A DNA stretch of 64,000 nt, taken from the IMG/VR virus record IMGVR_UViG_3300042894_007218. One strand, given 5' to 3'. The position numbers and the translations under genes were made by a program. Of the stretch, positions 60,459 through 64,000 are shown in pieces. Numbering within the stretch: the first letter of the stretch is position 1; every line of letters starts with the position of its first letter. Under the pieces are notes generated by a model. That model was given only the letters and a program-made list of their open reading frames with translations. It did not search any database and was not told where the DNA came from. This DNA is from an uncultured virus (IMG/VR IMGVR_UViG_3300042894_007218). Taxonomy: Duplodnaviria > Heunggongvirae > Uroviricota > Caudoviricetes.

Positions 60459-61715
60459 ATGTATATCAATTTTACTGAAATTATTGAAAGGTGGGGTAAA
60501 CCTAAAGGTGTCGTCCATATTGGTGCTCACCTTCTTGAAGAAAGAGAGGAATACTTAAAGCACAATCTTACAAATACTATATGGGTAGAGGCAAATCCTA
60601 CTACTTATCAACAAATATTAAATCTTAATATCAGTAACGAAGAAAAAGTTTTTAATCATTGTATCACTGATAAAGATGATGAAACACATACTTTTCATAT
60701 TACTAATAATGGTCAATCCTCATCAATTTTAGATTTACAAAAACACGAAGAATATCATCCGCATATTTTTGTTGTTGATAACATCGAAGTTCAATCTAAA
60801 AGAATGGATACATTAATTAACCAGTATTCTATCGATATTTCAAACTATGATTTTCTTAATTTAGATATACAGGGTGCTGAATTACTTGCTTTGAAGAGCT
60901 TTGGTGATTTAATAAATAATTTCAAATATATTTATACCGAGGTTAATATAAATTATCTTTATAAAGATAATGCGTTAATGTCCGAAATAGATGATTATTT
61001 AAAAAAATATAATTTTATACGAGTGGAAACTGTTATGACTGAAGCTGAATGGGGTGATGCTCTTTATGTTAAAGAAGACATCACTGATAATAAAAAACTA
61101 ATTTTTGATGTTGGCGCTCACCATGGTTTGTTTACTGATGTGTGTAAGGAGAGATTTCCTGATGCTAAAATTATTTCAGTTGAAGCAAATGAAGAACTGT
61201 GGGGTAATCTACATCTTAAGTATGAGTTCGATCCAACTGTAGTTGTTATAAACTATCTGGTTTCGGATGTAACTGCGGATTTTAAAACTTTTCATATTAG
61301 TAATTATGACCAAATTTCAACTGCGTCAGAAGACTGGATTGAAAATTCTAGATTTAGTGGTCACAATTTTGATAAAAAAGTCGGTGTTGTTACTGTAAAT
61401 TTAGACAGTTTAATTAAAATTTTTGGTAAGCCTGATCTAATAAAAATTGATGTAGAAGGTTATGAGTATGAAGTCATTGGTGGTCTAAATCAAAAAGTAG
61501 ATGAAATTTGTTTTGAGTGGGCAGAAGAGCAGTATGAGAAAATAAATTTAACTTGTCAAAAATTACAACAACTCGGATATAAAAATTTTGGATATATACT
61601 TGGAGATGAGTATTTAAAAAGACCTGATACATTCACCACTTGGGAAACTTCGGATTTTCACAACATAGTCAAACCTGAAGAAAAAGATAAATGGGGAATG
61701 ATTTGGGTCAACTAA
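60459..61715 (+). CDS. Tandem FkbM-family methyltransferase (two domains)
   Basis: HIGAH...VEANP...LDIQGAEL and DVGAHHG...VEAN...IKIDVEGYE. Confidence 0.82.
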   Translation: MYINFTEIIERWGKPKGVVHIGAHLLEEREEYLKHNLTNTIWVEANPTTYQQILNLNISNEEKVFNHCITDKDDETHTFHITNNGQSSSILDLQKHEEYHPHIFVVDNIEVQSKRMDTLINQYSIDISNYDFLNLDIQGAELLALKSFGDLINNFKYIYTEVNINYLYKDNALMSEIDDYLKKYNFIRVETVMTEAEWGDALYVKEDITDNKKLIFDVGAHHGLFTDVCKERFPDAKIISVEANEELWGNLHLKYEFDPTVVVINYLVSDVTADFKTFHISNYDQISTASEDWIENSRFSGHNFDKKVGVVTVNLDSLIKIFGKPDLIKIDVEGYEYEVIGGLNQKVDEICFEWAEEQYEKINLTCQKLQQLGYKNFGYILGDEYLKRPDTFTTWETSDFHNIVKPEEKDKWGMIWVN

Positions 61716-62234: not shown

Positions 62235-62457
62235 ATTCATCAAATCTTGAAATGTGATTTTCACTGACTTTTTCAGGAAGACCTTGATGTTTAGTTTTGG
62301 CAAAATCTCTCAATTTTTTTAAACCCTTTCTTTTCCCTTTTTTCAAAAATGACTTTGCTAATTTCTTTACTGATGGTGATGCATCTTCCATTTCGCCTTT
62401 TGCCCAAGCGTATGCCATGCCCATTAATCTTTGTTGTTTTTTTGAAGTTGATGGCAT
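62224..62457 (-). CDS. Small basic protein (DUF3008-like)
   Basis: MPS.SK.QQR.MG.A, L.DFA.TK..GLPEK. Confidence 0.55.
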   Translation of the reverse strand: MPSTSKKQQRLMGMAYAWAKGEMEDASPSVKKLAKSFLKKGKRKGLKKLRDFAKTKHQGLPEKVSENHISRFDEFTF

Positions 62458-62502
62458 GGAAAGTATAAATTTTTATTATATATAAAAAAATAATTTAATA
62501 TT

Positions 62503-62715
62503 ATGTCAAAATTGAGAAACGGTGGAATTATTTCCAAAGAAGAATATGTAGGTAAAACATTACAAGAAGCAACTAAATACGCAGAAGATGGTGGTTTTGT
62601 TACTAGAATAGTTGAAACAGATGGTCATGCAAAAATGTTAGATATGTCTGTAAATCCAAAAAGATTAAATTTTAGAGTAAATAAAGAATTTGTTACCGAC
62701 GTATTTGGTGGATAA
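62503..62715 (+). CDS. Small protein resembling peptidase inhibitor I78/I13 fold
   Basis: YVG....A.......RIV......M.....RLN..V....V....G. Confidence 0.45.
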   Translation: MSKLRNGGIISKEEYVGKTLQEATKYAEDGGFVTRIVETDGHAKMLDMSVNPKRLNFRVNKEFVTDVFGG

Positions 62716-62731
62716 AATAATTTAATAAAAA

Positions 62732-62763
62732 TTTGGTAGATTTAAAACATTTTACTAATTTTG
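62732..62763 (+). promoter_or_regulatory. Bacteroidota sigma-A promoter for the leader/tRNA operon
   Basis: TTTG (62732-35), 20 nt spacer, TAATTTTG (62756-63). Confidence 0.75.
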
Positions 62764-62820
62764 TATAAGATAATGACAAATAATTAAAAAGAGAGTTTAA
62801 CAATTCAATATATAACAACA

Positions 62821-62922
62821 ATGAGAGCAATTCGCACACATAAGCATTTTAGTAAATCGTCGAAGTGGTTTAGTCACTCCGGTTCGGTACTAAAAGAGTA
62901 TTGCTCAAATTTAGAAGTGTAA
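62821..62922 (+). CDS. Attenuator leader peptide MRAIRTHKHFSKSSKWFSHSGSVLKEYCSNLEV (33 aa, not in the ORF track)
   Basis: ATG at 62821 in A-rich context, TAA at 62920-22; codons 5-20 match the downstream tRNA set. Confidence 0.8.
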   Translation: MRAIRTHKHFSKSSKWFSHSGSVLKEYCSNLEV

Positions 62923-62947
62923 TAACTTATAAAAGACAATATAATTT

Positions 62948-62980
62948 AACCCGAACCTCGAAAGAAGTTCGGGTTTTTTT
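62948..62980 (+). terminator. Intrinsic terminator/attenuator directly upstream of the tRNA array
   Basis: aacccgaac(62948-56)/gttcgggtt(62967-75), GAAA loop, T7 tail; 5' arm also complementary to 62881-87. Confidence 0.88.
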
Positions 62981-62995
62981 ATTAATAAAAAAATT

Positions 62996-63068
62996 GGAAT
63001 GGTGGCAGATTAGGTAATTGCGCTGGACTGAAAATCCAGAGGAGTGGGCTCGATACCCACCCGTTCCA
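62996..63068 (+). tRNA. tRNA-Phe(GAA)
   Basis: Acceptor ggaatgg/ccgttcc; anticodon arm ctgga-ctGAAaa-tccag; no encoded CCA. Confidence 0.9.
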
Positions 63069-63078
63069 CAAAAAATAT

Positions 63079-63154
63079 GATCTCGTAGCTCAGCAGGTTT
63101 TAGAGCACCTCACTTTTAATGAGGGGGTCGTGGGTTCGAGCCCCACCGGGATCA
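63079..63154 (+). tRNA. tRNA-Lys(TTT)
   Basis: Acceptor gatctcg/cgggatc; cctca-ctTTTaa-tgagg; GGTTCGA T loop. Confidence 0.93.
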
Positions 63155-63156
63155 CT

Positions 63157-63229
63157 GTGAATGTAGCTCAATTGGTAGAGCGCTTGATTGTGATTCAAGA
63201 GGTAGCGGGATCGTAACCCGTCATTCACC
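63157..63229 (+). tRNA. tRNA-His(GTG)
   Basis: Acceptor gtgaatg/cattcac, discriminator C; cttga-ttGTGat-tcaag. Confidence 0.9.
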
Positions 63230-63233
63230 AAAT

Positions 63234-63304
63234 ACGTCATACAGACAAGGTGTCGGTCAGGTCTCCAAAACCTCGACGGCTGGGTTCAATTCCTAGATGG
63301 CGTG
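63234..63304 (+). tRNA. tRNA-Trp(CCA)
   Basis: Acceptor acgtcat/atggcgt; aggt-ctCCAaa-acct; ctggg-ttcaatt-cctag; atypical D arm. Confidence 0.8.
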
Positions 63305-63309
63305 CTAAT

Positions 63310-63382
63310 AGTTTCATCGTCTAACCGAATAGGACACACGGCTACGAACCGTGAAGTGAGAGTTTGAGTCTTTCTGAAACTA
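63310..63382 (+). tRNA. tRNA-Arg(ACG)
   Basis: Acceptor agtttca/tgaaact; cacgg-ctACGaa-ccgtg; atypical T loop tttgagt. Confidence 0.8.
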
Positions 63383-63390
63383 CAAAATAA

Positions 63391-63477
63391 GGAGAGTTGG
63401 TAGAGTGGTTGATTACACCGGTCTTGAAAACCGGAAAACTTGAAAGGGTTTCCAGGGTTCGAATCCCTGACTCTCCT
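63391..63477 (+). tRNA. tRNA-Ser(TGA)
   Basis: Acceptor ggagagt/actctcc; ccggt-ctTGAaa-accgg; long variable arm; GGTTCGAATCC. Confidence 0.93.
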
Positions 63478-63488
63478 CTAAATTTTAC

Positions 63489-63569
63489 GGAGAATAAACT
63501 AATCTGGTGATTAGAGCCGCCTGCTAAGCGAGTTGCACGTACATTTGTGTGGGGTTCAATTCCTCTCCG
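63489..63569 (+). tRNA. tRNA-Ser(GCT), apparently with a damaged 3' acceptor strand (possible pseudogene)
   Basis: cgc-ctGCTaa-gcg, long variable arm, gggg-ttcaatt-cctc; 3' side is too short to pair with both the T stem and ggagaat. Confidence 0.6.
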
Positions 63570-63570
63570 C

Positions 63571-63999
63571 TTATACTTTTGGTTTTTCAACAATAAATTC
63601 ACCATTAATATCATATAAACCACTACTTAAGATATAGTCATCGTGTCTTTCGCCAATTACTAACCAGGATATTTCATCAGATGAATTCGAATTAATACAG
63701 TTTATTTGTAGTTTATTTCCAATTACGATGCCTTTTACTGCATCCCATCCAGTCTCATTTGAGGTGAAACATTGGAAGTTTTTATTTAATGCAAGTAATG
63801 TACCTTCTGTCATATTAAATTGCTCATCTAAATTAATTTCAATAAATCCATTTACTAACTGTGATTTACCTCTGTATATGTTATTTGCCTGTGGTGCTTC
63901 TACAAAAGAGTGTAATAAAGTATGTGTTTCTTTTAGTTGTGGAAGAGGGTGGTCAATTTGAAATGTACCCGCTGCCTTTGAAAGTGTTCCATTAACTCT
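63571..63999 (-). CDS. C-terminal part of a tail fibre-type protein (gene starts beyond the window)
   Basis: Open from the window edge: ...GTLSKAAGTFQIDHPL...LLHSFVEAPQANNIYRG...WLVIGERHD, a typical fibre C-terminal module. Confidence 0.65.
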   Translation of the reverse strand, partial: RVNGTLSKAAGTFQIDHPLPQLKETHTLLHSFVEAPQANNIYRGKSQLVNGFIEINLDEQFNMTEGTLLALNKNFQCFTSNETGWDAVKGIVIGNKLQINCINSNSSDEISWLVIGERHDDYILSSGLYDINGEFIVEKPKV

Positions 64000-64000
64000 C

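Follow-up and report, generated by a model that had tools for sequence, protein, structure and literature searches.

A putative leader-peptide attenuator ahead of a phage tRNA array, and codon-matched leaders in related huge phages

A small transcription unit located close to the end of a 64,000-nucleotide (nt) stretch of DNA from an uncultured virus of the Caudoviricetes (IMG/VR record IMGVR_UViG_3300042894_007218; the whole stretch is referred to below as the window) is probably a transcription attenuator in which a ribosome on a leader peptide does the sensing and the transfer RNA (tRNA) genes placed behind the leader, as an array, are the output. The unit is constructed from a promoter of the Bacteroidota type, a pair of boxes in the 5' untranslated region (5'-UTR), a leader open reading frame (ORF) of 33 codons, an intrinsic terminator and a series of tRNA genes (Table 1). 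The assignment, which is made from comparison of sequences, is carried by the anatomy of the unit and its conservation among relatives, by the match between leader codons and downstream tRNAs, by the restriction of this match to a single reading frame, and by the covariation of a terminator with an antiterminator.

Codon content of the leaders and identity of the tRNAs behind them

Within codons 5-20 of the window leader, 15 of the 16 encode Phe, Lys, His, Trp, Arg or Ser, and only 3 of the 13 codons that follow (21-33) belong to this set, which agrees with the counts given in a preliminary description of the unit. When strict wobble rules are applied, 14 of the 16 are readable by the seven anticodons of the array, the exceptions being ACA and TCC. 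Such a composition is rare in the window: among 47,933 stop-free stretches of 16 codons, taken from all six frames of the 64 kb, a score of 15/16 was reached by two, both of which lie inside the leader ORF, and a score of 14/16 by four, three of which lie inside it. The codon boxes also fit, since CGC stands in the window leader ahead of Arg-ACG; this match is softened by the occurrence of the same CGC codon in relatives whose Arg tRNA sits behind a separate leader. The use of CGC at codon 5 as a marker of arrays without a separate Arg/Ser leader was considered and rejected, because loci L005, L010 and L027 possess both CGC and such a leader.

Homologous leaders, designated as class A, were found in other phages. 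A distant BLAST search disclosed the same layout in two uncultured phage records, LR745206.1 and LR756502.1 (634,780 and 642,428 bases), and a scan of IMG/VR with the pattern of the conserved core returned 27 loci, 17 of which contain the small ORF, the other 10 being discarded as chance matches within long ORFs or without an ATG. Together with the window and the two BLAST records (loci L001 and L002), these 17 loci constitute a set of 20 leaders (19 of them at other loci), of which 16 are distinct. All 20 precede arrays for Phe, His, Lys and Trp, in part with Arg and Ser: 148 of the 150 ARAGORN calls downstream of them are tRNAs for these six amino acids, the remaining two are untyped calls with a four-base anticodon, and no tRNA for any other amino acid was present among the 150. 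The core H-K-(H/N)-F-S-K-x-x-K-W-F-(S/R) is kept throughout the class, in which F-S-K...K-W-F-S was fixed by the search pattern, so that only the flanks of the core constitute free evidence; the ATG is invariant and the frame open in all 16 distinct leaders. A second leader of the Arg/Ser type precedes Arg-ACG in 8 of the 10 class-A loci that have Arg-ACG in reach, the exceptions being the window and L016, and the absence of this second leader from the window is therefore taken to indicate a compact array under one leader.

The same relationship was extended to the remaining amino acids by four related huge-phage records with 50-68 tRNA-model hits each, in which 18 stretches around the tRNAs were compared. 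The tRNAs are sorted by amino acid into blocks, and each of the blocks examined is preceded by a promoter-proximal small ORF and a terminator of its own, the ORF being written in the codons of that block. A leader with MTTMNLNMTMNLTLNVVNITL.. stands ahead of a block of Asn, Leu, Val, Ile, Thr, Met and Arg-UCU, and MTTMNLNMTMNLTLNVV is an example of a leader preceding an Asn/Leu/Val/Ile/Thr/Met block; ..NPQPQDQDP.. is followed by Pro and Asp, MTTTQQIQQQQINQTD by three Gln tRNAs (QQIQQQQ likewise stands before Gln), ..SYESYYEEG.. by Glu and Tyr, ..ISIAVIGNGAGAI.. by Ile-UAU, Gly and Ala, and ..SKSSSRSSS.. by Arg-ACG and Ser. The correspondence reaches individual codons, AGA being used in the leader of the Arg-UCU block, ATA before Ile-UAU and ATT before Ile-GAU. 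In G001, a single merged Glu/Tyr/Gly/Ile/Ala array is accompanied by a single merged leader, MNTLIYIGYIAEGGYEAGSF. A pattern scan for another class, class C, gave 14 matches, only three of which are leaders (two on contigs already in the set), the other 11 having no downstream tRNA.

In each of the four genomes, which together have 26 leaders, the true pairing of leaders with arrays was the unique best, out of 5040, 720, 5040 and 720 permutations respectively, and the result was the same at the amino-acid and the codon level, for codons 2-20 or for the whole ORF. The four genomes are related and do not amount to four independent trials; each within-genome test stands alone. At the codon level, the match of a leader to its own array averages 0.44 in frame versus 0.11 and 0.10 in the two other frames, and the true frame scores highest in 27 of 27 leaders. 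All 27 have open frames, which range from 16 to 43 codons, and all leaders start with M-(K/T/R/N)-(T/N)-(I/L/M/T)-. The preliminary description had named covariation of small-ORF codons with array anticodons in related phages as a check on the attenuator, and the 20 class-A leaders and the unique best pairings in four genomes provide a strongly positive answer.

The Gln leaders (L033 3139-3189, L036 4429-4500, L042 2434-2487 and L047 2938-2991) have neither a promoter nor AATATATA of their own and lie inside a Pro/Asp/Gln array; the Pro/Asp leader upstream also has Gln codons, and the two together look like attenuators arranged in series. Leaderless tRNA-Met(CAT) genes (L031 2871-2943, L035 2613-2685 and L040 2075-2147) have the promoter and AATATATA of the other units, yet neither a small ORF nor a terminator. 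By the mismatched 1:72 pair, this tRNA is presumably initiator-like, and the leaderless units would fit the attenuator idea because an initiator tRNA cannot be sensed by elongation.

The proposed RNA switch and competing explanations

Terminators were found in all 27 leaders, with energies from -12.6 to -27.9 kcal/mol. In 19 of them, 8-24 nt separate the T run from the first called tRNA; in the remaining 8, a tRNA-like stretch that was not called, or an ORF, comes between. In the window this distance is only 15 nt, which leaves no room for a separate promoter before tRNA-Phe. Across the 16 distinct class-A leaders, the terminator helix is 95.8% paired and 7 of its 9 pairs have changed on both sides. 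The antiterminator helix, formed between alignment columns 140-146 and 231-237, is 94.2% paired with 5 of 7 pairs changed on both sides, for instance to CUUGG/CCAAG in L003, L013 and L024 or to AUUCGA/UCGAAU in L002; its covariation score was reached by 0 of 500 shuffles, and helices slid along the alignment as controls were 27-45% paired. In the window, the duplex between segment 2 of the leader and the terminator arm has an energy of -12.8 kcal/mol, which was reached by 4 of 300 shuffles, and in 13 of the 27 leaders no more than 7 of 300 shuffles were as good (Fisher combined p = 7e-15, calculated over sequences that are related). A helix between segments 1 and 2 is present in the minimum free energy (MFE) fold of the window and is 94.5% paired across the 16 sequences. 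The attenuator reading put forward in the preliminary description is thus supported by the homologues, by the pairing permutations and by a terminator 5' arm that pairs with a segment of the ORF, both sides of which change together.

The behavior of the leaders was also modelled by folding transcripts cut right after the terminator 5' arm with part of the codons masked, the criterion being at least 5 nt of the arm paired upstream. The arm was paired upstream in 20 of 27 leaders when the first 16 codons were masked and in 1 of 27 when the ORF was masked to the stop codon. Within the terms of this model, a ribosome held early would be distinguished from one that has run through, and a separate state of no translation receives no support.

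The following sequence of events is envisaged. Transcription would start at the Bacteroidota-type promoter, and a ribosome would translate the 33-codon leader. If Phe, Lys, His, Trp, Ser or Arg codons were decoded slowly, the ribosome would occupy segment 1 (62827-62868), leaving segment 2 free to pair with segment 3, which includes the terminator 5' arm; this pairing would block the terminator, and RNA polymerase would continue into the tRNA genes. Under fast decoding, the ribosome would cross segment 2 to the stop codon, segment 3 would pair with segment 4 (62967-62975 and the T run), the terminator would form and transcription would end 15 nt before tRNA-Phe. Newly made tRNAs would relieve the stall, which would give a feedback loop of supply on demand. 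Translation of the ORF, stalling of the ribosome, the direction of the switch and the part played by the 1:2 helix are what we infer from this arrangement, as is a natural cause that depletes the tRNAs; that host anticodon nucleases are the trigger is purely conjectural.

The stretch, which belongs to a large freshwater phage, occurs in lake-water and other freshwater metagenomes, and the leader is covered by contigs from three RNA libraries. Run X15 contains a 200-nt contig identical to 62755-62954, which comprises the leader only and stops inside the terminator 5' arm; run X16 yielded a contig in which the leader ORF of a relative is connected to tRNA-Phe, plus another contig that extends from the upstream gene into the leader; run X17 holds pieces of a relative, and run X20 gave no matching contig. 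Such contigs show no ends, strand or level and the libraries may contain DNA, for which reason no conclusion was drawn from them.

Several points weigh against an attenuator and have to be set beside the evidence above. As regards the codons, codon 2 of the window leader is AGA, which has no reader in Arg-ACG; Ser codons are kept in this leader class with or without Ser tRNAs behind the same leader; class-A leaders retain codons for Asn, Gln and Thr, amino acids without a tRNA in the arrays behind them; and the shared N-terminal codons give every leader a match of 0.26-0.63 to the Asn/Leu/Ile/Thr array as well. As regards the RNA, covariation of the class-A antiterminator rests on about four lineages, 13 of the 27 leaders show a complementarity of segment 2 to the arm that does not exceed that of shuffles (more than 25 of 300), and the 1:2 helix has no compensatory pairs and a 5' side set by the search pattern, and is not needed by the truncated folds. 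In the unmasked truncated MFE fold, which stands for the absence of a ribosome, 21 of the 27 leaders already have the antiterminator formed. By estimate, a ribosome pausing on the stop codon of the window leader would end about 2 nt short of segment 2, and termination in the fast state consequently depends on kinetics. The first base of the X15 contig, 62755, precedes the start site predicted from the promoter. Finally, the excess of third-position variation that usually signals a selected protein is absent, which is expected for a leader and gives no proof of coding.

The last point also bears on the nature of the ORF product. Variable columns in the class-A alignment are distributed evenly over the codon positions (8, 8 and 9-10), and segment 2 is preserved at the nucleotide level even though its reading frame in the window and L020 differs from that in the remaining 14 sequences. 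A functional micro-protein was rejected on these two grounds, and judged from the alignment, the codon-position pattern is what a leader, not a micro-protein, should look like.

Because the 5'-UTR boxes (AAAAGGGAG.., TTTAATATATA) are found in all tRNA units, those of the leaderless tRNA-Met included, some shared non-translational signal exists. It could accordingly be proposed that the leader RNA works in factor-dependent antitermination, as a put- or nut-like site or another target of a phage protein, with the small ORF not being sensed at all, and a 1:2 helix without covariation support would agree with this proposal. It would, however, leave unexplained why the ORF codons are specific to each block and match in frame only, together with the conservation of the ATG and of an open frame (16 of 16 class-A leaders, 27 of 27 leaders in total), and it is therefore regarded as improbable. 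A second explanation accepts that the leader is translated and sensed and supposes another output than intrinsic termination, such as Rho loading or RNA processing or stability, or a reversed polarity in which stalling lowers tRNA synthesis. Intrinsic termination is less well studied in Bacteroidota, and the fold model does not separate the states of no ribosome and of a stalled ribosome (21 versus 20 of 27), from which this explanation draws its force; but strong hairpins with T runs in all 27 leaders, the nearness of the T run to the first called tRNA in 19 of them, and the position of segment 2 just downstream of the control codons, which is the arrangement giving stalling-induced read-through, make it very improbable.

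Database models were likewise consulted for known RNA elements. No leader, riboswitch or small-RNA family of Rfam reached its threshold in 62300-64000, the best being Thr_leader with 22.9 bits versus a gathering score of 55 (E=0.17), a match that lies mostly on the terminator hairpin, and the T-box covariance model gave no match up to E=1 in the same region. The Rfam rows sX4, YrlA, plastid and tmRNA_permuted were set aside as weak matches sitting on tRNAs. Ribosome-free sensing in the style of a T-box, in which naked leader codons would pair with tRNA anticodons and stabilise the antiterminator, would account for the codon-level match of leaders to array anticodons; nevertheless, neither a T-box nor another riboswitch was matched in Rfam up to E=1, no T-box-like acceptor-binding bulge was seen in a search that was not exhaustive, and 13-16 contiguous in-frame codons between a conserved ATG and a stop are a hallmark of translation rather than of one specifier loop, so that hardly any likelihood is left to it. 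Equally little is granted to the view that promoter, ORF and terminator make up a separate small gene or small RNA, that the tRNAs are made by constitutive leak-through and that the codon match is incidental: the 200-nt contig does match the leader alone, and terminated leader RNAs are reported to act in trans in other bacteria (PMC6614838), but the match is found again in each of 6-7 leader classes per genome with a unique best pairing, peptide conservation at third positions is lacking, two of the 16 sequences read segment 2 in a different frame, and the antiterminator covaries with the terminator.

Features of the window and its tRNA array

Table 1. Positions of the leader unit and of the tRNA genes behind it, in window numbering.
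Feature	Position	Strand	Sequence or composition	Basis or remark
Predicted Bacteroidota-type promoter	62732..62763	+	TTTG 62732-62735, 20-nt gap, TAATTTTG 62756-62763	Sequence, pattern scan
Conserved 5'-UTR boxes	62786..62814	+	AAAAAGAGAG then TTCAATATATA; AATATATA = 62807-62814	Near-invariant columns of the class-A alignment
Leader ORF	62821..62922	+	33 codons and stop, MRAIRTHKHFSKSSKWFSHSGSVLKEYCSNLEV	ORF call
Control-codon block	62833..62880	+	Codons 5-20, R T H K H F S K S S K W F S H S	Highest F/K/H/W/R/S score in the window
Segment 1 core	62847..62854	+	UUUUAGUA, pairs with 62888-62895; outer GCAAU 62827-62831 pairs with AUUGC 62900-62904	MFE fold
Segment 2	62881..62904	+	GGUUCGG 62881-62887, UACUAAAA 62888-62895, GUAUUG 62898-62903	Predicted to pair with segment 1 or 3
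Segment 3	62937..62957	+	CAAUAU 62937-62942, CCGAACC 62951-62957	Predicted antiterminator partner of segment 2; overlaps terminator 5' arm
Intrinsic terminator	62948..62980	+	Stem 62948-62956:62967-62975, T run (seven T) 62974-62980	-15.2 kcal/mol
tRNA-Phe	62996..63069	+	Anticodon GAA	ARAGORN default; Rfam 61.1 bits
tRNA-Lys	63079..63155	+	Anticodon UUU	ARAGORN default; Rfam 66.6 bits
tRNA-His	63157..63229	+	Anticodon GUG	ARAGORN default; Rfam 62 bits
Probable tRNA-Trp, atypical	63234..63305	+	Anticodon CCA	ARAGORN at 90% only; Rfam 25 bits, tRNA-Sec model only
tRNA-Arg	63310..63383	+	Anticodon ACG	ARAGORN default; Rfam 50.4 bits
tRNA-Ser	63391..63478	+	Anticodon UGA	ARAGORN default; Rfam 59.7 bits
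Doubtful tRNA-Ser, possibly degenerate	63488..63574	+	Anticodon GCU	ARAGORN at 80% only, 63495-63574; Rfam tRNA-Sec 33.1 bits, below gathering score, 63488-63569

The promoter, the AATATATA box, the ORF and the terminator were all recovered where the preliminary description had placed them. The consensus of Bacteroidota promoters consists of TTTG at -33 and TAnnTTTG at -7, separated by about 19-21 nt, and the window promoter, with its predicted start site, fits this consensus. Both of its boxes, TTTG and TAATTTTG, are kept upstream of the homologous leaders. The window contains 12 occurrences of TTTG-N18-22-TAnnTTTG, with 5.0 expected, and 1 of 100 shuffles reaches 12.

AATATATA is nearly invariant ahead of the homologous leaders in the class-A alignment. 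Its interpretation as the -10 box of a leaderless mRNA was rejected, the spacing to the ATG ranging from 4 to 7 nt; a general phage signal was rejected too, since AATATATA is not enriched in the window as a whole (17 versus 12.8 expected). The pair of 5'-UTR boxes AAAAGGGA(G/C).. and TTTAATATATA is common to the promoters of all tRNA units (window, L030-L047), including the leaderless Met units. An open frame of 33 codons has a probability of about 0.06 by chance at the base composition of the window.

Calling of tRNAs was performed with ARAGORN at its default setting and at relaxed thresholds of 90% and 80%, the last of which also yielded one spurious call, and with Rfam models. The array of seven tRNAs claimed in the preliminary description holds for Phe, Lys, His, Arg and Ser-UGA, all of which are firm; Trp-CCA is only probable and Ser-GCU is doubtful. 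A homologue of Trp-CCA is present in L002 and L044, and a compensatory change in its acceptor stem was read by eye against L002. When the Ser-GCU candidate is compared by eye with its homologue at L044 4387-4480, the junction of T stem and acceptor looks shortened, so that it may be a decaying gene.

Other arrays of the collection contain unusual members. Calls of tRNA-Lys (UUU/CUU) with 82-89 nt were made by ARAGORN, for example at L001 4844-4930, 4934-5017 and 5023-5109 and at L002 3825-3911, and this length means a long extra arm, an unusual feature in tRNA-Lys. Calls of tRNA-like genes with four-base anticodons inside arrays (L015, L020/L037 with ggaa, L033 with gtag and L041 with acat) may be artefacts or tRNAs of the frameshift type. 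Endonuclease ORFs were noticed inside tRNA arrays or between leader and array (L037 4133-4699, L039 3176-3718 and L008 1313-1954); that of L037 is an HNH ORF (Pfam HNH_4, 36.6 bits), that of L008 is GIY-YIG-like below the cut-off, and they are probably homing elements.

Upstream of the leader, an ORF of 70 amino acids (62503-62715), which has no Pfam family, takes the same relative place in L001 and L002, where further genes are inserted between its homologue and the leader. An ORF of 418 amino acids (60459-61715) upstream of the tRNA unit harbors two stretches of the FkbM-type methyltransferase (Pfam Methyltransf_21, 103.6 bits).

Relation to known attenuators and meaning for the phages

Leader-peptide attenuators of amino-acid operons are well known from enterobacteria and include trpL, hisL, leuL and pheL as well as the multivalent thrL and ilvL. 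The unit described herein shares with them a short ORF rich in control codons, a terminator right behind it and an alternative helix that uses the terminator 5' arm, and it shares with the thr and ilv leaders the sensing of several amino acids by one peptide. It is distinguished by an output of tRNA genes instead of biosynthetic enzymes, by as many as six amino acids sensed, and by its location in a phage behind a Bacteroidota-type promoter; in addition, homology in sequence or structure is absent, and the 1:2 helix is only putative here. A further parallel is the pheM leader, an attenuator which controls pheST, the operon of phenylalanyl-tRNA synthetase in E. coli. There too a leader peptide monitors how much charged tRNA is available and governs part of the apparatus that decodes the amino acid concerned, but the output of pheM is a synthetase for one amino acid, whereas here the tRNAs themselves would be the output and the product would feed back directly on the sensed step. 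The T-box binds uncharged tRNA through one specifier codon without a ribosome and controls mostly synthetase and amino-acid genes in Firmicutes; it resembles the present unit in tying the status of tRNA to terminator read-through by way of an antiterminator, and differs in that a translated ORF with multiple codons is the likely sensor here.

The tRNA sets of phages are viewed as helpers of codon usage or as a counter-defence against host systems that cleave tRNA. In a survey of huge phages, up to 67 tRNAs are reported per phage, phage genes for the repair of tRNAs cleaved by host defences are mentioned, and the five genomes larger than 634 kb are predicted to replicate in Bacteroidetes (PMC7162821). 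The strings 'attenuat' and 'leader' have 0 occurrences in the main text of this survey. Such accounts, as far as could be found, concern the content of the tRNA sets, and neither control by codon-matched leaders nor sorting of arrays by amino acid was found in them. No published account of leader-peptide control of tRNA genes or of phage tRNA arrays was found by full-text literature searches, as judged from listings and abstracts. The element would work like a multivalent leader-peptide attenuator, stands outside every curated leader family, and is, as far as could be found, new in having cognate phage tRNA genes as its output.

A wider proposal, which is offered as possible rather than probable, is that in huge phages predicted to infect Bacteroidota the entire tRNA complement is operated as a modular 'decoding-demand regulon', in which the 50-68 tRNA genes would be distributed over 6-7 amino-acid blocks, each gated by its own codon-matched attenuator, some of them in series, and the initiator-like tRNA-Met alone would be leaderless. 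The phage would in this manner sense limiting host tRNAs by codon class and replace only those, the causes of the limitation possibly including anticodon nucleases and other tRNA-targeting defences.

The textbook logic that couples amino-acid synthesis to the speed of decoding thus appears to control tRNA genes here, in a virus, with one sensor for each group of amino acids. If this is true, it would account for the sorting of tRNA arrays by amino acid in these phages, and it would offer Bacteroidota research a small sensor of natural origin, responding to how fast particular codons are decoded, that could be tested and put to new use there. Whether phage tRNAs answer the depletion of host tRNAs would become open to direct test, and the arrangement would give the tRNAs of these phages a regulated, feedback-controlled role in place of a constitutive one.

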